Shown piece after piece: positions 1,616 through 53,301 of a stretch of 64,000 nucleotides of DNA. Each line of letters begins with the position of its first letter. Within the stretch, counting starts at the first letter, position 1. The position numbers were made by a program, and so were the translations under genes. Source of the stretch: an uncultured Planctomycetia bacterium (lineage in GTDB: Bacteria; Omnitrophota; Gorgyraeia; Tantalellales; Tantalellaceae); assembly GCA_964527555.1 (NCBI GenBank), contig CAZGOG010000002.1, positions 41,698-105,697 on the forward strand, read 5' to 3'. Below the pieces are notes generated by a model, which did not search any database, was not told the DNA's origin, and saw nothing but the letters and a program-made list of their open reading frames with translations.

Positions 1616-2881
1616 TTATTCTTTCACTCTTTTGACTTTCGCGCCTACCGCTGAAAGCTTCCGTTCGATATGCTCATAACCCCTGTCGAGGTGATAAATC
1701 CTTGAGATTTCTGTGCGGCCCTCCGCCACCAGTCCCGCCAGGACCAACGCGGCAGAAGCCCTCAGATCCGAAGCCATAACCGGTGCCCCGCTGAGGCGTT
1801 TAACGCCCCTTATGATCGCGGTGGAACCTTCCAGTATGATATCCGCGCCCATCCTGTTAAGCTCGCTTATGTGGATGAATCTTTCCGGATATATCTTCTC
1901 AGTAATAACACTTATGCCGCTGCAAAGGGTAAAAAGACTCATCATCTGCGCCTGAAGATCCGTCGGGAAGCCCGGATACGTCAGGGTCGTGACATCCGTG
2001 GGCAGGATCTTGCCGGTCTTTCTGTATACTTCGACCCCTCCGGGGCGTTCCTCGACCATGCCGCCGGAATCCTCCAGCTTATCAATAAGCGCAAGATTAT
2101 GCGCCAGATCCGCATTCTCGAGGAAGAGCCTGCTTCCCGTCAAGACGGCCGCTATCATGTAAGTACCCGATTCGATCCTGTCGGGGATGACCGTGTGGCG
2201 AGCCCCCTCAAGGCGCTTAACACCGCGCACTCTGAGTGTAGGAGTGCCGGCGCCCTCTATGTCCGCCCCCATCTTACGCAAGAAGTTCACCAGGTCCGTG
2301 ATCTCCGGTTCACACGCGGCATCTTCTATCACGCTCTGGCCTTCGGCCAGGACCGCTGCCATAAGCGTATTGGCCGTGGCAAGCACGCTTGAGCCGAAAT
2401 GCCCGCCCAGGTATATCCGCGCGCCTTTTAGTTTTTTGGCGCTGGCGACTATATATCCCTCTTCAATGCGTATATCCGCACCCAGTGCACGCAGACCCTT
2501 AAGATGCAGGTCAATGGGCCTGGGCCCTATTACGCATCCTCCCGGAAAAGAGACCTTGGCCTCTTTATACCTTGCAAGAAGCGGCCCCAGAACCGCTATA
2601 GAAGCGCGCATGGTGCTCACCAGCTCATATGCGGCGGTAACGTTCTTGACCTCACCCGGAGATATCCTTACTCCGCTGTTTTCTTTTTTTATGCCGCGGC
2701 CGAACTCCCCGAGGAGTTTTATCATGGTGGAAACGTCTTTTAGGTCCGGCACGTTTGAGATACTGCACTCCTCATCGGTAAGCAGGGTCGCCGCCAGGAT
2801 CGGCAGGCAAGCGTTTTTCGCCCCGCTTATGCGTACGGTACCGGTAAGTTTCCTCCCGCCCTCAATGATAAGCTTATCCAT
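1616..2881 (-). CDS. murA: UDP-N-acetylglucosamine 1-carboxyvinyltransferase
   Basis: 421 aa. MDKLIIEGGRKLTGTVRISGAKNACLPILAATLL is the MurA/EPT-family N-terminus, and length is appropriate. Confidence 0.9.
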   Translation of the reverse strand: MDKLIIEGGRKLTGTVRISGAKNACLPILAATLLTDEECSISNVPDLKDVSTMIKLLGEFGRGIKKENSGVRISPGEVKNVTAAYELVSTMRASIAVLGPLLARYKEAKVSFPGGCVIGPRPIDLHLKGLRALGADIRIEEGYIVASAKKLKGARIYLGGHFGSSVLATANTLMAAVLAEGQSVIEDAACEPEITDLVNFLRKMGADIEGAGTPTLRVRGVKRLEGARHTVIPDRIESGTYMIAAVLTGSRLFLENADLAHNLALIDKLEDSGGMVEERPGGVEVYRKTGKILPTDVTTLTYPGFPTDLQAQMMSLFTLCSGISVITEKIYPERFIHISELNRMGADIILEGSTAIIRGVKRLSGAPVMASDLRASAALVLAGLVAEGRTEISRIYHLDRGYEHIERKLSAVGAKVKRVKE

Positions 2882-3551
2882 TCTTCCACCCCGTAATGAC
2901 GCGTTCGTATCCCGCCTGGTCCCTGAAACCGGCGATATTCTTAAAACCGTTGTCGTAAAAACCTTTTTTCACCTTCTCCGCCTGGTCGTATCCTATCTCG
3001 AGGGCAAGGAATCCCCCCGTCTTAAGGAACAGCGGGCTTTCCCGCAGGAGAATATCAAGATAATCCATGCCTTCTTCCCCGGCATAAAGAGCTATTTTGG
3101 GCTCCGCTTTGACCCAGGCGTCAAGGCCATCGTAATCCTTGTCTGAGACGTAGGGCGGGTTCGAGACGACACAGTCAAAAGAGTTTTCCCGTTTTCCTCT
3201 AAACGCCGAAAACATGTCCGAGACCACAAGTTCAACGTTTCCGACGCAATCAAAACGTTTTAAATTCTCCCCAGCCACGCTCAAAGCTTCATCTGAGACG
3301 TCCGAAGCGATTATACGGCATCTTTTCAAAAGTTTCGTAAGACCCAGCGGGATGATCCCGCTTCCGGTGCCCACATCAATTATGAAAGGCTCGCTAAAGG
3401 CCGCTTTCCGGCACAGTTCTGACGCGGCAGTTACCAAAAGTTCCGTCTCGGGGCGCGGTATGAGCACCCTCTCATCCACCGCAACTTCCATGTCCATGAA
3501 AGAAGCCTTACCCTCTTCATACTGTACCGGCACTTTGTCGGAATAGTCCAT
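2874..3551 (-). CDS. prmC: Release factor glutamine N5-methyltransferase (PrmC/HemK), N-terminally short form
   Basis: 225 aa. Contains VLIPRPETE, the DVGTGSGIIPL SAM motif and the NPPY catalytic motif. Sits directly downstream of prfA as in the conserved prfA-prmC operon. Only ~28 aa precede the VLIPRPETE block. Confidence 0.85.
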   Translation of the reverse strand: MDYSDKVPVQYEEGKASFMDMEVAVDERVLIPRPETELLVTAASELCRKAAFSEPFIIDVGTGSGIIPLGLTKLLKRCRIIASDVSDEALSVAGENLKRFDCVGNVELVVSDMFSAFRGKRENSFDCVVSNPPYVSDKDYDGLDAWVKAEPKIALYAGEEGMDYLDILLRESPLFLKTGGFLALEIGYDQAEKVKKGFYDNGFKNIAGFRDQAGYERVITGWKNG

Positions 3552-10401: not shown

Positions 10402-10962
10402 TTACGCCTTTACTTTGCCGTCCGCCACCCACTGGTCCACCTTGGACCTTTCAAACATCCATTCGCCGCCGTTCCTGGTGCCCGGAAGCATGCCGTTATT
10501 GACCCACTCGTTTACCTTGTGTGATTCGACTTCCAGGTATTCAGCAAGCTGATTTGCCGTCATCCAGTCACCCCTGGATGCGGAACCCGCGGATGGGTTC
10601 ATACCCTTCATGCGCAGCTGCCCGTTTATAAAAGCACCTTCCGATATGGAAATCCTGGGCGTTTCGACATCACCGTTAAGTTTTGCGCTTGCATCCAGCT
10701 TCAAAGTTTTGGTGGCCTTTATGTTGCCGTTTACAACGCCTGCGATCGAGATGGTCTCGCCGGTTATATCCGCTTTTATGTCGGCTTTCTCCCCGATCAT
10801 GAGAACACCCTTGGCATCCAGCTTACCCTCGAATCTGCCGCTTATCCTCAAGTTTACAGGATCATCGAAACGCAAGGTACCCTGCATGGTGGCGTTTACG
10901 TCCAGCACCTTCTCTTCTGGCTTACTCTGTACTACTACTTCTTCAGGTTTCCGTTTTCTCAT
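10402..10962 (-). CDS. Bactofilin (DUF583 polymer-forming domain) fused to C-terminal excisionase-type HTH
   Basis: 186 aa. Residues ~25-125 (LRISGRFEGKLDAKGVLMIGEKADIKADITGETISIAGVVNGNIKA...ETPRISISEGAFINGQLRM) match the bactofilin beta-helical repeat pattern. C-terminal WMTANQLAEYLEVESHKVNEWVNNGMLPGTRNGGEWMFERSKVDQWV resembles the HTH of the downstream gene 10035..10400. Confidence 0.6.
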   Translation of the reverse strand: MRKRKPEEVVVQSKPEEKVLDVNATMQGTLRFDDPVNLRISGRFEGKLDAKGVLMIGEKADIKADITGETISIAGVVNGNIKATKTLKLDASAKLNGDVETPRISISEGAFINGQLRMKGMNPSAGSASRGDWMTANQLAEYLEVESHKVNEWVNNGMLPGTRNGGEWMFERSKVDQWVADGKVKA

Positions 10963-11005
10963 CGCGCCCTCCTTTTTCTCTTAAAAAGTTCATTTGTCTT
11001 TTCTA

Positions 11006-11665
11006 TCATCCCCATTTTACGCGTTCTACTCCCGCTAAAGACGAAATCTCAGAAACGATGTCTTTTTCATAAATACGCGGGACTAAAAGATCGAAAGCAA
11101 AATCTTCCTTAGTCCTGGTATCGTCCTTCTCGGACGAGACCCTTTTTATCCTGCCACCGCAAGACTCAATGGCATTCTTTATATCATCGGCGCTAGTACC
11201 CATATTGACGCTCATCCTGATGAGGAGTTTCTTGCCGCGCCGTTTGAGCGCCATCCGCTCTTCCAGCCGCGAAAGAATAAGGACTACAAGCACTACACCG
11301 GTGGCAATCCCGGCCGCTTCATACATACCGGCGCCCACAGCCAGCCCGATCGCGGAGACCGCCCATATACTCGCGGCGGTCGTCAGGCCCCTGACAGAGG
11401 CACCATACCTTATTATAGCACCTGCTCCCAAAAATCCAATACCTGTTACGACCCCGGCGGCTATCCTCGAAGGGTCGGCTTCACCTATATCCCCGTAACT
11501 GGCGGCGATCAGTATAGAAGTTATCATAAAAAGAGTCGACCCCACACAGACCAGTATATGAGTCCTGAGCCCCGCGGCGCAGCCGTGTATCTCGCGTTCC
11601 ATACCGATAATCGCGCTTAGAACCGCCGATATCACCAGTCTCAGAAAAATGATCGCACTTGGCAT
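11006..11665 (-). CDS. mgtC: MgtC/SapB-family membrane protein
   Basis: 219 aa. N-terminal multi-TM region with GMEREIHGCAAGLRTHILVCVGSTLFM (MgtC signature) plus a C-terminal ACT-like soluble domain. Confidence 0.8.
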   Translation of the reverse strand: MPSAIIFLRLVISAVLSAIIGMEREIHGCAAGLRTHILVCVGSTLFMITSILIAASYGDIGEADPSRIAAGVVTGIGFLGAGAIIRYGASVRGLTTAASIWAVSAIGLAVGAGMYEAAGIATGVVLVVLILSRLEERMALKRRGKKLLIRMSVNMGTSADDIKNAIESCGGRIKRVSSEKDDTRTKEDFAFDLLVPRIYEKDIVSEISSLAGVERVKWG

Positions 11666-18234: not shown

Positions 18235-19092
18235 TCATGCTTTTCGCCCCGCGAAACGCTCACCTGCCGCATCAGAAACCCTGGCGTAATCCTCCAGAGA
18301 AAGTGATTCCGCGCGGCTTGCCGGATCGATACCGCAGCTCTCGAACAATCTTATCCAGTCGTCTCTTGTCATCGAGGCGAAATCTCCCTGCGAAAGGGGG
18401 TTGACGGCTTTTTTCCTTCTTTGGGAAAAAGCCTTGCGCACGATCCTGAACATGAGAGCCTCATCCGTGACTTTTACGCTTGGCTCACTCAGCACCTTAA
18501 GCTCAACTAGATGCGAGTCTACCCGGGGTCTGGGATAAAAGGAGTTCTTCTTGATCCTAAAGAGTTTTTTCACCTCCATATAAAACTGGACAAAGCAGCT
18601 TATGGACCCGTAAACGCGGCTGCCGCTGGAAGAAGCTATCCGTTCGGCAAGTTCCTCCTGTATCACCAGATAAACCGCATCGATACATTTCCTCTGGCGG
18701 ATCATCTTCTCGATCACGGGAGTTGATATGTAGTACGGGATGTTCCCGAAAACCGTCAAAGCCCCGCTATCTTTCGCCAGAGCGCATATATCGACATCCA
18801 GGATGCTCGCTTCGATAAGCGTTATATCCTTCTCTCTAAAGCGTTCAGCCATTATCCCGCATATTCGCCTGTCCTTCTCAACCGCAAAGAGCTTCCCGCA
18901 CATGGCGGCAAGCTCGAACGACATGACGCCGAAACCCGCTCCTATCTCGAGGACTCTCTTTGAAGAGTCGACGCAAAGCGCCTTTAAGATATTGTCTCTT
19001 ACGTTTTTATCGATCAGAAAGTTCTGGCCCAGTTTCTTGTTGGGACGGAAATCTTCCTCTCGCCATAACGCTTTAAGTTCTTTTAAGTCCAT
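18235..19092 (-). CDS. rsmA: 16S rRNA (adenine1518/1519-N6)-dimethyltransferase
   Basis: ORF 18235..19122 trimmed to the internal Met (MDLKELKALW...). The first 10 codons of the long ORF lie inside repeat copy A. KKLGQNFLID and EIGAGFGVMS motifs (KsgA/RsmA). Confidence 0.85.
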   Translation of the reverse strand: MDLKELKALWREEDFRPNKKLGQNFLIDKNVRDNILKALCVDSSKRVLEIGAGFGVMSFELAAMCGKLFAVEKDRRICGIMAERFREKDITLIEASILDVDICALAKDSGALTVFGNIPYYISTPVIEKMIRQRKCIDAVYLVIQEELAERIASSSGSRVYGSISCFVQFYMEVKKLFRIKKNSFYPRPRVDSHLVELKVLSEPSVKVTDEALMFRIVRKAFSQRRKKAVNPLSQGDFASMTRDDWIRLFESCGIDPASRAESLSLEDYARVSDAAGERFAGRKA

Positions 19093-19110
19093 GTTTAGAT
19101 TGTCTTTAAC

Positions 19111-19233
19111 GTGAAGCTCCATGGGCTAACGCCCATGGCATCCACAGTTTCAGTCTTTCCGTCAAGCGGAATCCTGCACCGAAGGCCATTCATCCACGCC
19201 CTTACGGGCGTGGCCTTCCGGTGCATGGGCAAA
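19111..19233 (+). repeat. 123-bp structured interspersed repeat, copy A (orientation gtgaagctcc...catgggcaaa)
   Basis: Read directly. Near-identical to 43978..44100 and to the reverse complement of 39128..39250 and 53179..53301. Contains hairpin ccatgggc-taac-gcccatgg and a nested hairpin tgcaccgaaggcc[attcatcc acgccc-ttac-gggcgtgg]ggccttccggtgca. Confidence 0.9.
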
Positions 19234-20238
19234 AAGAGCCCGTGCGGCAAGTTTGATGGCCTGCTTCATAGAACCGGCCCTTGCGATACCCTTGCCGGCT
19301 ATATCAAAAGCAGTGCCGTGATCTGGTGAGGTCCTCACATGCCCCAGTCCCAGTGTCATATTGACACCGGTATCAAAATCCACCATCTTAAAAGGCGCAA
19401 GACACTGGTCATGGTACATGGAAACAACGATATCGATTTTTTTCTCTCTCGCTTTATGAAAGATCACATCCGCCGATATGGGGCCCTGGATATTTTTATA
19501 GACAGCTTTAGCCTTCTCGACCGCCGGCAGTATCATATCGATTTCCTCGGTGCCTATCTTCCCCCCTTCGCCGCAATGCGGATTTAAGGCAGAGACGCCT
19601 ATTACCGCATCCTCCTTGCCGCATATGATCTTGCGGTTTTCAACAACCTGTTTAAGAGTCTCCACGATAAGATCCACACTCAGACTGGAGGCGACTGCCT
19701 TTAAGGGAATGTGGCGCGTTACCGGAGCGACGCATAAAGTCTCTCCGGCAAGGACCATGGTAACGTGCGCAGCGGAATACGCTTCCTGGAGATACTCGGT
19801 ATGCCCTATAAAGCCCGGTTTGATCCTGGCCGTCCTCTCCTTGCTGAGGGGCGCGGTAACCAGTGCTGCGCCCGCCCCGCTTGAAGCCTGCATCAGAGTA
19901 ACGGCGCTGGCCAGCGCATCAAGCGCCTTACGGGCGCCCTCCTCGCTGGGAGTACCCGGAACGGTATTTTTTAAAGGAGTGGTGGGATCAATTATGTTTA
20001 CAGCTTCTTCATCTAAAAGGATCTTTCCGGAGGCGTTGTCATGATGCACCTTGATATTGCCCTCATACACACCGGCTGCGGCCCTTTCCATGACGCCGGA
20101 GTCCCCCACAATGACAAAAACGGCAAGCCCTTTGATTTCGGGGCTTGCCATCGCCTTCATGATCACTTCCGGGCCTATGCCGGAAGGATCTCCCATAGTT
20201 ATAAAAATCTGCGGTTTACTTGTAGGAGATATACGCAT
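19162..20238 (-). CDS. pdxA: 4-hydroxythreonine-4-phosphate dehydrogenase
   Basis: 358 aa. FITMGDPSGIGPEV N-terminus and PdxA family fold. The last ~23 codons and the stop are encoded by repeat copy A. Confidence 0.85.
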   Translation of the reverse strand: MRISPTSKPQIFITMGDPSGIGPEVIMKAMASPEIKGLAVFVIVGDSGVMERAAAGVYEGNIKVHHDNASGKILLDEEAVNIIDPTTPLKNTVPGTPSEEGARKALDALASAVTLMQASSGAGAALVTAPLSKERTARIKPGFIGHTEYLQEAYSAAHVTMVLAGETLCVAPVTRHIPLKAVASSLSVDLIVETLKQVVENRKIICGKEDAVIGVSALNPHCGEGGKIGTEEIDMILPAVEKAKAVYKNIQGPISADVIFHKAREKKIDIVVSMYHDQCLAPFKMVDFDTGVNMTLGLGHVRTSPDHGTAFDIAGKGIARAGSMKQAIKLAARALFAHAPEGHARKGVDEWPSVQDSA

Positions 20239-37402: not shown

Positions 37403-39166
37403 CTACTTCTTCTTCCTGAAATCCAGCCAGGGCGCGTATTCCCTCTTGGGCTGCACCGCTTCGGTGTTTCCTACAGGAACTTCTACCTGTTTCTGGGTGG
37501 TTTTCAGCTTCCCCGTCATAAGCACGGGGGCTGTTTCGGTTTCCTCGGCGCTTTCTTTCTGCGTTATGTATTTATCAAAGTGCGGCTGGGTCTCGGAATC
37601 AGCGATGGAATCCATGGCGTCTTTCACCAGGTGCACCGTGACGAAAAATACGATCTCAGTTCTTCGGATTTCTTCGGATTCGTATTTGAAAAGACTTCCC
37701 AGAACCGGTATGCCACCCAAAAGGTCGCCCAGTATCGGGAGTTTATTATCCTCTGTCACCAGCTCTTTCCGTATAAGCCCCCCCAGGAAAATCGTGTCTC
37801 CGTCTCTCACCCTTATGATCGTGTTAGCCTCCCTGGAATTAAACGTAAGGGCCACTGTTCCCTGCTGGGCCGCTCCGGCAAGCGTGAGCACGCTAAAGCC
37901 TTCGTTATTAGAGACTTCCGGCAGGAGATTGACGGAGATGTCCCCTTCTTCGTTGACATGGGGGATCACCACGAGCTTCACGCCGACTTCCCTGGCATCC
38001 TCTATATCTTCAAATTGAACGGTAACGGTCGTGGAGGTATCTGTACTCTGCAGCGCCTCCTGCAGCATTATTTTCTGGATTACCTTTATAGTGGCTCTTT
38101 GATTATTCAATGTCGTTATACGGGGACTTGAAAGTATCTCGGAATCGCCCCTCTGGTCTATAAGCGCCAGAGTCGCGGTAAAGGTACTAAAGTCCAGGTA
38201 ACCATACGTGAACAGATCCGTGCCGGCGAGAGCCTGGGCAACCGCGGGGATACCTGTATCCGTAATCCAGGGAAAAGTTGGAGCAAATCCTCTTCCTCCT
38301 GTCGAAGGATAATACTTCTCATCCGGCGCACCGTTTAAAAACGGCAAGGTCCCGTCGTTTTTAAAGGGAAAGGTGATCGGCTTTTTAGCCCCGGCAGCCG
38401 TTATTACCGCGTTCCAATCCACGCCGAAACGTTCGTCCTCGTTTAAGAGGATCTCGACAACTTTCGCATCAAGTATGATCTGGGGGGTCTTCTTGTCGAT
38501 CTTGCTTATCATCGTTTTGATGTCGCTTATGCGCGCGGGTATCGCCGTTATCACTATGGAATTAACGCTTGAGATATATGTGGCTTTTTCGCCCTGCCTG
38601 GGGTTAAGGATTGAGTTGATCGCCGTCATCAGCTGGTTGATGCTTTCTTCCTTCTGCTCTACAAGCACCTCTTCATTGCCTTCTTCCGTTTTGGTCAGCT
38701 CAATATCACGTATGAGGTGATTTAAGGGTATGACCTCTGTCACGGGCTCTTCCGCGTGAAGCTGTCCTTTGGGTATGACCCTTATGATGTCGCCCTCGCG
38801 TGAATAGACGTATCCGTAGTTTCTTGTCACGATGTCAAGTGCCACTTCCCAGGGTTTGTTCCTTAGACGCATGGTGACCAGGCCCTCGACTCCGGGAGAC
38901 GGGATTATATCGACCCCGCTTACCTCGGAAAGGTAATGAAGGACTGTCTTTATATCCACATCCTTGAAATTGACAGTCACGTTCCCGGCTTCGGCCAAAG
39001 GCTGGCCTATATCCTCTTTGACCGGGGATGTTTGGGCAGCACCCGCAGGTGAAACATTCACCTGGGCATATGAATCCACTATTAGCAGCGAATTCATAAA
39101 TAAAATCGCAACAACTGGCGCAAGAACTTTTACCCATGCACCAGAAGGCCACGCCCGTAAGGGCAT
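37403..39166 (-). CDS. pilQ: Type IV pilus secretin PilQ
   Basis: Secretin N-domains (VTVNFKDVDIKTVLHYLSEVSGVDII) and a C-terminal secretin domain (GDTIFLGGLIRKELVTEDNKLPILGDLLGGIPVLGSLFKYESEEIRRTEIVFFVTVHLV). The long ORF starts at 39271 inside repeat copy B. The plausible start is an ATG at 39166 (MPLRAWPSGAWVKVLAPVVAILF... signal-like), also inside the repeat. Start uncertain. Confidence 0.85.
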   Translation of the reverse strand: MPLRAWPSGAWVKVLAPVVAILFMNSLLIVDSYAQVNVSPAGAAQTSPVKEDIGQPLAEAGNVTVNFKDVDIKTVLHYLSEVSGVDIIPSPGVEGLVTMRLRNKPWEVALDIVTRNYGYVYSREGDIIRVIPKGQLHAEEPVTEVIPLNHLIRDIELTKTEEGNEEVLVEQKEESINQLMTAINSILNPRQGEKATYISSVNSIVITAIPARISDIKTMISKIDKKTPQIILDAKVVEILLNEDERFGVDWNAVITAAGAKKPITFPFKNDGTLPFLNGAPDEKYYPSTGGRGFAPTFPWITDTGIPAVAQALAGTDLFTYGYLDFSTFTATLALIDQRGDSEILSSPRITTLNNQRATIKVIQKIMLQEALQSTDTSTTVTVQFEDIEDAREVGVKLVVIPHVNEEGDISVNLLPEVSNNEGFSVLTLAGAAQQGTVALTFNSREANTIIRVRDGDTIFLGGLIRKELVTEDNKLPILGDLLGGIPVLGSLFKYESEEIRRTEIVFFVTVHLVKDAMDSIADSETQPHFDKYITQKESAEETETAPVLMTGKLKTTQKQVEVPVGNTEAVQPKREYAPWLDFRKKK

Positions 39167-39250
39167 GGATGAATGGCCTTCGGTGCAGGATTCCGCTTGA
39201 CGGAACCCTGAAACTGTGGATGCCATGGGCGTTAGCCCATGGAGCTTCAC
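39128..39250 (-). repeat. 123-bp structured interspersed repeat, copy B (reverse-complement orientation)
   Basis: The reverse complement of 39128..39250 aligns end-to-end with copy A, with only a few transitions and a 1-nt indel. Lies between pilP and pilQ and overlaps the pilQ 5' end. Confidence 0.9.
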
Positions 39251-39310
39251 TATTCGACTAAATTTTTTCATGTTCCCCCCCCATTACGAATTTAAAAACC
39301 GTACTTCTTT

Positions 39311-42107: not shown

Positions 42108-43976
42108 CTATGGTTTACTTTTCCCCTCCGATATGATCTTTCGCATAAGTTCGGCCGGTTTTTTAAAACCGGGGTCGCACATGATTGCTTTTTGAAGATA
42201 CATCTTTGCCTGTTTTTCTTCTCCCCCCGCGAGAAAAACCTCCCCAAGATTATAAAAAGCAAGCGGCCTCTCGGGATAAAGTTTTGCGGCTTCCAGATAA
42301 TAAGTCGCTGCCTCAGGCAGATACCCCATACGGCTATATGCGGTGCCAAGATTGATAAGGGCATTGTAATCGTACGGCTTGATCCTGTATGCTCTTTTAG
42401 ACACTTCGAGAGCTTTTTCATCTTCCCCGCTCTCCGAATAGATGGCACCAAGAATAAGAAGCGCTTCAGAGTGCCTGGGGCTCATCTCAAGCACTTTCTC
42501 CAAATAGTTTATTGCGGCTGTCTTATCACCCCGCTTAAGCTCCACCAAAGCCATCCCCACATATGCGTCAAAATTATCGGGGTCGATAGCAAGCACTGTT
42601 TTAAAATCGCGTTCAGCTTCATCCGCCGCTCCCGAAGCAAGCTGCCACCTTCCTCTTAAATAAAGCGCTGCCGCATCGCCGGGCCGGGTCTCTACATAAG
42701 AGTCCATCTCATCCAAAGCCTTCTGGTTTATTTTACCTTTTTTGGATGATACGGCTTTGTAGAACATGGCTGAATCATCTTCTTTTGAAAAAGAAAGTAC
42801 TCGGCCGCTTAAAGATTCGCTCGTCTGCCAGTATTTAGTCTGGGCTATCGTTATGCTCGCAAGGGTGGCAACGATAACAAGAACGCCTCCGGCAATAAGA
42901 TATTTTGACGGCTTTCCTCTTCTTTCATAAACTTCAGTAAGCGAAACTGACACAAAAAGAAATGCCCCGTAGCTGGGAAGGTAGAGCCAGTGTTCCGCGA
43001 ACACTTTGAGGCCAGCCGCCACAAAAAGAAAAGGAACAAGACTTATAAGAAAAAACCCCAATGAAAATACCAGGAGGCGTCTTGAGCCTTTCAGATAAAA
43101 AACGAGGAAGATGATTATGGCGAGAGACGCGATCACGAGGGGGTCCGCCTGTTGTAAAAAAGTGCCTGCCCTTCTCACATGAAGAGCCGCGGGAAAAATC
43201 ACCAGGAGAAAAAACTCTTTAACTATCTCGAAATATTTAGCTGATGCCTCCTCGAAACCAGCAAGCTTTATAACGGTGTGATACCTCCCCCCGAAAAAGA
43301 GGTAATGCGCCAGCGCATATACCCCGCAAAGAAGAAAAGCCGGCACCTGACTTGTCATCCTCTTTTCTCTGAGAACTAATATGCTCATCAAAAGAAGCAG
43401 AAACGGAAAAATAAGCGCCGTTTCCTTTGAAAGAAGCGCAAGCGCCAGAGAAAAAACGCTTGCGGCAAGAAAGATCGGTTTTTTTAATTCTACGTATCTC
43501 ACGTAAAAAATCATGTACAGAAATCCGAACAAAAAGAAAAGCAGGTCCGCCCTGCTGGAGATATATGCTACTACTCCGACATAGGCGGGGTGGATTATAA
43601 ATAAAAGAGAAGCAAGCAATGCCGGCGCCTTCTTGCGCGCAAGCTCCAGCGTCAAATAAAAAACTAATAGACCGTTAAAAAAATGTAGAAGGATACCTGT
43701 AATATGAAACCCCAACGGATTCATCCCCCACAGCCGGTAATCCAAAGCGTAAGTGAGCATCTGCACGGGCCGGTAATAGATAGAGTATATGAAACTGGAG
43801 TTTATTACATCCTGCTTGAATACCTGAAAGGACGCTAAAGACGCGCGAATCTGGGGGTTTTCAAGAACTATGAACTTATCGTCCCACACAAAACCGGCAC
43901 CAGTGACATTGCCGTACGAGACCGCTGTTGCGGTAAGAAGAAGTAACGCTATAAGAATATTTTTACGTGTCAGCAT
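42108..43976 (-). CDS. Multi-pass membrane protein with GT39/PMT-like (DUF1736/TMTC-like) N-terminal region and C-terminal TPR repeats
   Basis: ORF 42108..44099 trimmed to the ATG at 43976, immediately after repeat copy C. The longer TTG-initiated ORF would translate the repeat. N-terminal motif GFVWDDKFIVLENPQI plus ~11 TM helices, then 6-8 TPR units (AAALYLRGRWQLASGAADEAERDFKTVLAIDPDNFDAYVGMAL...). Confidence 0.7.
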   Translation of the reverse strand: MLTRKNILIALLLLTATAVSYGNVTGAGFVWDDKFIVLENPQIRASLASFQVFKQDVINSSFIYSIYYRPVQMLTYALDYRLWGMNPLGFHITGILLHFFNGLLVFYLTLELARKKAPALLASLLFIIHPAYVGVVAYISSRADLLFFLFGFLYMIFYVRYVELKKPIFLAASVFSLALALLSKETALIFPFLLLLMSILVLREKRMTSQVPAFLLCGVYALAHYLFFGGRYHTVIKLAGFEEASAKYFEIVKEFFLLVIFPAALHVRRAGTFLQQADPLVIASLAIIIFLVFYLKGSRRLLVFSLGFFLISLVPFLFVAAGLKVFAEHWLYLPSYGAFLFVSVSLTEVYERRGKPSKYLIAGGVLVIVATLASITIAQTKYWQTSESLSGRVLSFSKEDDSAMFYKAVSSKKGKINQKALDEMDSYVETRPGDAAALYLRGRWQLASGAADEAERDFKTVLAIDPDNFDAYVGMALVELKRGDKTAAINYLEKVLEMSPRHSEALLILGAIYSESGEDEKALEVSKRAYRIKPYDYNALINLGTAYSRMGYLPEAATYYLEAAKLYPERPLAFYNLGEVFLAGGEEKQAKMYLQKAIMCDPGFKKPAELMRKIISEGKSKP

Positions 43977-43977
43977 A

Positions 43978-44100
43978 GTGAAGCTCCATGGGCTAACGCC
44001 CATGGCATCCACAGTTTCAGTTTTTCCGTCAAGCGGAACCCTGTACCGAAGGCCATTCATCCACGCCCATAAGGGCGTGGCCTTCTGGTGTATGGGCAAA
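43978..44100 (+). repeat. 123-bp structured interspersed repeat, copy C
   Basis: Same orientation as copy A with ~10 substitutions, mostly C>T transitions that convert G-C pairs into G-U wobbles in the nested hairpins. Lies between pilA1 3' end and the TMTC-like gene start. Confidence 0.9.
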
Positions 44101-53178: not shown

Positions 53179-53301
53179 TTTACCCATGCACCAGAAGGCC
53201 GCGCCCGTAAGGGTGCGGATGAATGACCTTCGGTGCAGGATTCCGCTTGACGGAAAGACTGAAACTGTGGATGCCATGGGCGTTAGCCCATGGAGCTTCA
53301 C
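53179..53301 (-). repeat. 123-bp structured interspersed repeat, copy D (reverse-complement orientation)
   Basis: The reverse complement aligns with copy A over its full length. The inner stem carries a compensatory A-T to G-C change. Lies 10 nt downstream of the radical-SAM gene stop and upstream of the GGDEF gene. Confidence 0.9.

Follow-up and report, generated by a model that had tools for sequence, protein, structure and literature searches.

Hairpin-forming repeats that take over the ends of bacterial genes are a known kind of event, established for RU-1 in Erwinia and for the QMITEs in Coxiella. RU-1, an ERIC-like intergenic hairpin repeat of ~127 bp, is fused to the 3' end of ECA3499, an amidase gene of Erwinia carotovora (Delihas 2007, PMC2759123; review PMC2229807), where it lies beyond the conserved domain, leaves the normal stop codon unused, and adds ~35 repeat-encoded residues that are absent in orthologues (PMC2759123). 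[quoted passage not shown] 2018, PMC5896051). The element analyzed here has no sequence similarity to RU-1 and belongs to another family and another phylum; in its case, reconstruction of the pre-insertion site was possible with single-base precision, and downstream of the element the native stop codon still exists. It also differs from the QMITEs, which have terminal inverted repeats and direct repeats, in that it carries neither.

The Rickettsia palindromic elements (RPEs) are reportedly hairpin repeats that are translated within conserved proteins, and they are said to enter genes internally, without disturbing the frame, and to be read through, whereas the element of this study lies at the extreme 3' end of a gene and brings its own stop codon. 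Non-autonomous elements derived from IS200/IS605 (PATE-type) and REP/BIME mosaics have subterminal hairpins, lack terminal inverted repeats (TIRs) and target-site duplications (TSDs), use a one-sided, short T-rich target, consist of mosaic modules, and are mobilized in trans. Our element resembles them in its hairpins, its lack of TIRs and TSDs, its T-rich flank, its mosaic modules, and presumably its mobilization in trans, and differs from them in that there is no cognate transposase in the available sequence, no defined 4-5-nt target, and no REP-type 5' GTAG. As judged from its sequence, it represents a new family, from an uncultured phylum, and has the defining features of neither classical MITEs nor REP/REPIN systems nor the Acido-Lenti-1 motif.

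The locus is part of a contig stretch of 64,000 nucleotides (the window) from a Candidatus Omnitrophota genome, a housekeeping region in which all ~58 genes are on the minus strand and which contains, in this order, mfd, two surA-like genes, pdxA, ksgA/rsmA, gatC, gatA, and gatB, with the same order in relatives. The direct repeats D1, D3, and D10 of the window (46.8-51 kb) are paralogous T2SSE/PilB-PilT ATPase genes. In our view, a non-autonomous element was inserted into the last codon of pdxA, PdxA thereby gained a C-terminal tail, and the element would have been mobilized in trans by a Y1 enzyme; we assign a probability of about 0.85 to this reading as a whole. The features at the junction are as follows.

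19162-20238, minus strand: pdxA open reading frame, which translates to 358 aa, ending with ...AIKLAARALFAHAPEGHARKGVDEWPSVQDSA and the stop codon.
19234-20238, minus strand: native part of pdxA, codons 1-335, ending with ...AIKLAARAL (from Pfam, PDB, orthologue alignment, and AlphaFold2).
19165-19233, minus strand: element-encoded PdxA tail, residues 336-358, FAHAPEGHARKGVDEWPSVQDSA (direct translation).
19162-19164, minus strand: TGA that now serves as the pdxA stop codon, in the loop of the small middle hairpin of the element (sequence and fold).
19111-19232, minus strand (the repeat including a T extends to 19233): copy A of the 122-nt multi-hairpin element, TTGCCCATG...GGAGCTTCAC, inside the last pdxA codon (from window copies and population contigs).
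19106-19110, minus strand: what is left of the ancestral pdxA terminus after its displacement, the second and third base of the Cys codon (GT) followed by the native TAA at 19108-19106 (excision matches the relative L001).
19120-19122, minus strand: element-internal ATG in frame with ksgA, within the hairpin 2 stem, at which public gene calls start (295 aa with the extra residues MELHVKDNLN; L002 4075).
18235-19092, minus strand: ksgA/rsmA, 16S rRNA dimethyltransferase (Pfam RrnaAD, E 1.5e-49).

The preliminary description of this DNA had claimed that the pdxA frame runs into a repeat that encodes the last ~23 residues, and had suggested locating the end of homology by alignment with orthologues and by comparison with a relative that lacks the repeat. 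Both approaches bear out the claim. Codon 336 starts at position 19233, and 23 residues together with the TGA (19164-19162) are therefore encoded by the repeat. The Pfam PdxA domain PF04166 covers residues 41-331 of 358 (profile positions 5-286 of 286; E 3.4e-87), alignments with PdxA and PdxA2 chains in the PDB run to residues 332-334, with only 2-5 further residues in the structures themselves, and homology thus ends at residues 331-335 according to Pfam, PDB, and the orthologues. The repeat-encoded tail was found in none of 119 PdxA orthologues, and the peptide strings PEGHA or DEWPS occur solely in the window PdxA among the 120 listed proteins. The last-helix motif SMxxAIxxAxRAx was recognizable in 116 orthologues, and the stretch behind this last conserved helix comprises -1 to 10 residues in them (median 3), as compared with 23 in the window PdxA, whose nearest homologues are all from Omnitrophota MAGs.

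The enzyme itself is apparently intact. Despite the insertion, the full-length PF04166 domain and its conserved residues are present, including all 65 columns that are invariant in an alignment of 46 orthologous sequences. AlphaFold2, used with this alignment, predicted the PdxA core with a pLDDT of 93-98 and the tail with ~45, and the last helix stops at the junction with the repeat-encoded part. According to this model, the tail is probably disordered, and we infer that tail and insertion are tolerated rather than useful. The predicted tryptic peptides of the tail are ALFAHAPEGHAR and GVDEWPSVQDSA.

The closest relative, P0002 (locus L001), has a PdxA of 75% identity and the same gene order as the window, and its pdxA-ksgA junction is uninterrupted, reading ...GCT GCA CGC GCT ATT TGC TAG aagtgaatctaaa ATG GAT CTT AAA. 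The corresponding window sequence is ...GCC GCA CGG GCT CTT T(TTGCCCATG...GGAGCTTCAC)GT TAA agacaatctaaac ATG GAC TTA AAA, with the element in brackets. When the 122 nt at 19111-19232 are cut out, the window reads ARALC-TAA-13 nt-ATG, where L001 has ARAIC-TAG-13 nt-ATG, and the two junctions align without any duplicated base; the reconstructed empty junction is ...CTTTGTTAA... / GGGCTCTTTGTTAAAGACAATC. Excision of 123 nt instead would remove the stop codon and fuse pdxA to ksgA. The base preceding TTACCC is G or C in 2 of the 27 distinct element copies and T in the others. As this base can differ from T, and as only the 122-nt excision restores an in-frame stop codon, we take the mobile unit to be 122 nt long (19111-19232) and T19233 to be the native first base of codon 336. 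By this comparison, the element entered pdxA between bases 1 and 2 of its terminal Cys codon (TGT), and PdxA has lost one native residue, the terminal Cys, and gained 23. The ancestral pdxA end is a sequence that we deduce from a nearest element-free relative that is only 75% identical.

The preliminary description had further stated that the repeat replaced both the native terminus and the native stop codon of pdxA. The insertion and the replacement of the terminus hold, the latter for the Cys alone; the native TAA was not deleted and lies, unused, 122 nt further downstream.

The spacers between pdxA and ksgA measure 8 nt in L056, 9 nt in L054, and 11 nt in L053, which indicates that the tight junction is ancestral; altogether, the junction comprises 8-13 nt in four of five relatives, and the element is absent from these four (L001, L053, L054, and L056). 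L055, a 65%-identical relative, has an AT-rich insert of 267 nt at its pdxA-ksgA junction (2524-2790), which is different from the window element and rich in imperfect CGAAAT/TTCGAA palindromes. This insert looks like the independent arrival of another small element at the same junction.

Independent JGI, ENA, and NCBI assemblies together contain 10 contigs that encode PdxA with the tail, and the P0001 protein cluster includes no empty-site allele, that is, no PdxA without the tail. Due to these 10 independent contigs and the lack of a tail-less allele on record, the junction can be regarded as real and apparently fixed in the population. The shared sequence alone would also fit a tail that is native to PdxA, with the other copies being dispersed pdxA 3' ends, or an assembly artefact. 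This explanation is effectively refuted by the orthologues without the tail, the 10 contigs, the match of the excised sequence to L001, and the occurrence of the repeat at ~35 other sites, and in addition the repeat extends 54 nt past the pdxA stop codon.

The element occurs in three further copies in the window and consists of three stem-loops, which are listed here together with the copies.

39130-39250, plus strand (repeat from 39129): copy B, flanked by two pilus genes to which it is antisense, a pilP-like ORF on one side and the secretin gene on the other.
43978-44099, minus strand (repeat to 44100): copy C, sense, ending 1 nt before the ATG at 43976 of a TPR membrane-protein gene.
53180-53301, plus strand (repeat from 53179): copy D, antisense, following the stop codon of a radical-SAM gene at a distance of 9 nt.
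19176-19224, minus strand: hairpin 1 of copy A, nested stem GCACCGGAAGGCC-ACGCCC-GTAA-GGGCGT-...-GGCCTTCGGTGC, inside the new coding tail (RNA fold).
19157-19171, minus strand: small middle hairpin of copy A, TTCCG-CTTGA-CGGAA (RNA fold).
19119-19138, minus strand: hairpin 2 of copy A, CCATGGGC-GTTA-GCCCATGG, identical in all window copies (RNA fold).

The four window copies are 91-96% identical, far beyond chance, and the identity breaks off sharply at both borders. In agreement with an earlier remark that the tail peptide recurs in a spurious plus-strand ORF across copy B, the ORF at 38964..39200, which overlaps the secretin gene on the opposite strand and is spurious, ends with ...FTHAPEGHARKGMDEWPSVQDSA. 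An exact-match scan with the 33-nt 3' end yielded 30 metagenome stretches, all of one JGI sample series, and in the population contigs the element was found at ~35 distinct sites with 27 distinct sequences, all near one master sequence. This near-identity to one master within one sample series indicates a recent amplification in one lineage. A search of 5.8 billion proteins, which missed P0001 itself, revealed at least five proteins that contain element-derived peptides, all from the same lineage, and the range of the element thus seems to be restricted; viral contigs that were scanned gave 0 matches. Of the 27 distinct sequences, 7 belong to a subfamily of 124 nt, CAGTCTTTCCGC; L033 has, at two places (2602-2783 and 10961-11142), a composite that is longer by ~60 nt located behind hairpin 1, and L042 contains a rearranged copy (2855-3032). 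Subfamily, composite, and rearrangement show that the family has a mosaic structure.

The borders of the unit were defined from 24 flanked copies. Hairpin 1 occupies positions ~9-57 of the unit, hairpin 2 stops 7 nt short of the 3' end, and these two hairpins are unrelated in sequence. No open frame of the unit is longer than 41 codons, and none of them matches a known family. Pfam detected no transposase among ~53 genes of the window, and ARAGORN found no tRNA or tmRNA. Many near-identical copies, an empty site, and the absence of an internal transposase are what is expected of a non-autonomous repeat. The length of 122 nt, the number of copies, their position between genes, and their AT/T-rich insertion sites would also suit a classical MITE that derives from a DDE transposon and has TIRs and a TSD. 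However, the termini TTACCCATG... and ...GGAGCTTCAC are not complementary and form no terminal inverted repeats, a target-site duplication was found neither at the 24 flanked sites nor in the comparison of pdxA with L001, which shows a clean gain of 122 nt, and we consider a MITE origin very improbable. Subterminal hairpins at both ends in combination with the lack of TIR and TSD are instead the hallmarks of the IS200/IS605 type. A T precedes the unit in 22 of the 24 sites, the -2 position is T in 14 and the -3 position in 10 of them, no clear 4-5-nt motif is recognizable, and the flanks are T-rich on both sides. Due to hairpin ends, absent TIR and TSD, and a one-sided T-rich target, transposition by a Y1/HUH enzyme via single-stranded DNA fits the element.

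The predicted RNA fold of the unit is very stable (~-60 kcal/mol), with z-scores of -5.1 for the sense and -7.0 for the antisense strand. A rival explanation is a selected functional RNA module that would act in operon junctions as an mRNA stabilizer, an attenuator, or a regulator of ksgA translation, with the pdxA tail being a side effect. Such a role would be in line with the stability of the fold on either strand, with the apparent fixation of the insertion, and with the position of the copies, which usually lie 6-45 nt after a stop codon or just before a start codon; the latter would, however, already result from the short intergenic spacers alone. The copies are found in both orientations relative to their neighboring genes (~14 sense, 6 antisense), in unrelated gene contexts, and most of the substitutions among them are singletons, which disrupt base pairs instead of compensating for one another. 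Scans of 18800-19500 revealed no promoter or terminator, and Rfam gave no match at gathering score in the whole window and nothing meaningful for the element at E<=10.

At the pdxA-ksgA junction, the reconstructed ancestral sequence and the L001 sequence are unstructured, and the element adds ~50 kcal/mol of structure, which would again suit an RNA module. In the mRNA context, the element is predicted to fold on its own with its hairpins kept and the ksgA initiation region unpaired, so that the ksgA start is not sequestered. Taken together, we regard a selected RNA module as improbable. As had been noted, the hairpins sit within the conserved surA-pdxA-ksgA order, and the repeat, which ends at 19111, is 18 nt away from the ksgA start. 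This start, ATG 19092 (MDLKELK), is conserved in five relatives, and the ATG at 19120-19122 inside the element, used in public gene calls, is probably not a real ksgA start. Between the stop codon of pdxA and the start codon of ksgA there are now 69 nt, in comparison to ~13 nt before the insertion, and any termination-reinitiation coupling of the two genes would likely be weakened by this change.

A hint at the mobilizing enzyme comes from hairpin 2. Its 20-mer, CCATGGGCGTTAGCCCATGG, has exact matches in 18 stretches, which belong to representative genomes of several phyla, where ~1 would be expected by chance; Omnitrophota are not among the representative genomes that contain it. In three Planctomycetota MAGs (L011, L012, and L019), the 20-mer lies 45-130 nt from a gene for a Y1 protein of 160-167 aa (Pfam Y1_Tnp PF01797, E ~1e-28). 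These enzymes pass the NCBIfam cut-off for IS200/IS605 (80 vs 55 bits) and remain below that for RAYT (30 vs 80 bits). The window element and the Planctomycetota units have nothing but hairpin 2 (20-22 nt) in common. As this hairpin is identical to the hairpins that flank the Planctomycetota Y1 genes, we infer mobilization by a Y1/HUH enzyme, which is a tentative assignment that we rate at somewhat less than an even chance. A tblastn search with the Planctomycetota Y1 proteins in the window and in L023-L052 (285 kb) returned no significant homologue.

Further loci with the 20-mer (L005, L007-L010, L013-L018, and L020-L022) belong to MAGs of Bacteroidota, Cloacimonadota, CPR (Gottesman-/Curtissbacteria), Acidobacteriota, and Binatia, to Amycolatopsis, and to one gammaproteobacterial MAG, in which it occurs seven times, at the ends of contigs. 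The 20-mer usually adjoins other short hairpins with C-GAA-G or GTAA loops, and in L022 the core of hairpin 1 is present as well, with GCCC/GGGC changed in a compensatory manner into GACC/GGTC.

The main alternative to an IS200/IS605-derived element is a REP/REPIN system mobilized by a RAYT, a REP-associated tyrosine transposase. The element is short, intergenic, and palindromic, GTAG stands in front of the hairpin in the Planctomycetota loci, and the hairpin pairs there, which flank a single Y1 gene as inverted doublets, are REPIN/RAYT-like. Hairpin 2 of the window is, however, preceded by GATG (GGATG-CCATGG... as opposed to GTAG-CCATGG... in Planctomycetota), and GTAG is thus missing. Moreover, its two main hairpins are unrelated and do not form an inverted REP doublet, and the Planctomycetota enzymes belong to the IS200/IS605 side according to the models mentioned above. 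We therefore consider a RAYT-driven system unlikely, although less so than the RNA module.

According to the comparisons above, a 122-nt non-autonomous element with three stem-loops, without TIR and TSD and with a T-rich 5' flank, was inserted after base 1 of the Cys codon. The pdxA reading frame now runs on in frame 1 of the element for 23 codons up to the element-internal TGA, and the enzyme keeps its conserved fold as a whole, with one residue less and a 23-residue, probably disordered tail added, while the native TAA remains unused downstream. A strong hairpin is now located between the pdxA stop and the ksgA start, with the ksgA initiation region predicted to be unpaired. Mobilization presumably occurred in trans via single-stranded DNA by an IS200/IS605-type Y1 (HUH) transposase that would be encoded elsewhere in the genome.

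The Planctomycetota loci connect the hairpin to a described RNA motif. Acido-Lenti-1 (RF01687) is a multi-copy, two-hairpin candidate sRNA with unassigned function that is sometimes found near group II introns (Weinberg et al. 2010, PMC2864571). Twelve matches of 41-56 bits to this Rfam family lie at L011 5600-6830, L012 1020-2280, and L019 1280-1990, some of them arranged in inverted doublets that flank the IS200/IS605-family Y1 gene, and among the hairpin loci compared, only these three contained matches above the gathering score. On the opposite strand, the Acido-Lenti-1 motif corresponds to GTAG plus a palindrome. Hairpin 2 of the window, read antisense (CCAUGGGC-UAAC-GCCCAUGG), fits the consensus of the first 8-bp stem-loop of Acido-Lenti-1, CCnnGnGC-UnAC-GCnCnnGG. 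The window element as a whole is nevertheless not a member of the family, as it gives no match to the model at the gathering cut-off (37 bits) or at E<=10, and its second hairpin is 22 nt instead of 12 nt away and has a 5-nt instead of a 3-nt loop.

Other genes are touched by the element in a comparable manner. In L035 (3505-3627, minus strand), an unrelated ORF of 1066 codons runs into a copy in the same frame as pdxA and ends with ...KRA-FTHAPEGHARKGADE (FTHAPEGHARKG... tail), and when the copy is excised, the protein would end with ...KRASDKKL at a stop codon 17 nt further on. In L027 (3072-3194, plus strand), an antisense copy lies inside the native TGA, and the terminal G-TGA of the element takes over with the addition of one Trp. 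The C-terminal part predicted for P0123, a small TPR protein, spans an antisense copy over its full length. On the basis of these sequences, the capture of gene ends by the element, in pdxA, L035, L027, and P0123, appears to be recurrent. Antisense copies at L047 5227-5349, L037 1013-1135, L046 2284-2407, and L049 8663-8786 end ORFs of >130 codons at the terminal G-TGA; excision restored no nearby stop codon in three of these cases, and L049 is at a contig end, so that these ORFs may be either truncated genes or spurious.

Two of the six frames of the element are open throughout, which explains the extended public gene calls for ksgA, the secretin, and the TPR protein by copy C. The secretin (PilQ-like) ORF is extended upstream through the antisense copy B (39130-39271, minus strand), and an in-frame ATG within this copy (MPLRAWPSGAWVKVLAPVV...) would yield a plausible secretin signal peptide; the element might thus supply the start of the secretin gene. 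At copy C (43976-44100, minus strand), the listed TPR ORF is lengthened by 41 codons via a fully open element frame. A GGAG of the element is located 7 nt upstream of the start codon of the TPR gene and could be its Shine-Dalgarno sequence.

For the annotation of uncultured phyla, these effects are of practical relevance, as the element lengthens PdxA, gives ksgA a false upstream start, extends the N-termini of the secretin and the TPR protein, and makes spurious small ORFs. The Acido-Lenti-1-type hairpins beside IS200-family transposases suggest that this orphan Rfam "sRNA" is a transposon end, and Acido-Lenti-1 may be a transposon-end or REP-like DNA element. In a broader view, which we put forward with more doubt than confidence, the 20-nt hairpin shared across phyla would represent one family of Y1-transposase substrates, Acido-Lenti-1 would not be an sRNA but would act at the level of DNA, as the end or the REP hairpin of a transposon of the IS200 kind, and the 122-nt element would be a lineage-specific, non-autonomous mosaic that has formed around this hairpin and repeatedly remodels gene termini. 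At pdxA, the reconstruction offers a view at the level of single bases of how a selfish hairpin element can rewrite the end of an essential-pathway enzyme and separate the tightly coupled pdxA and ksgA, destroying neither gene.
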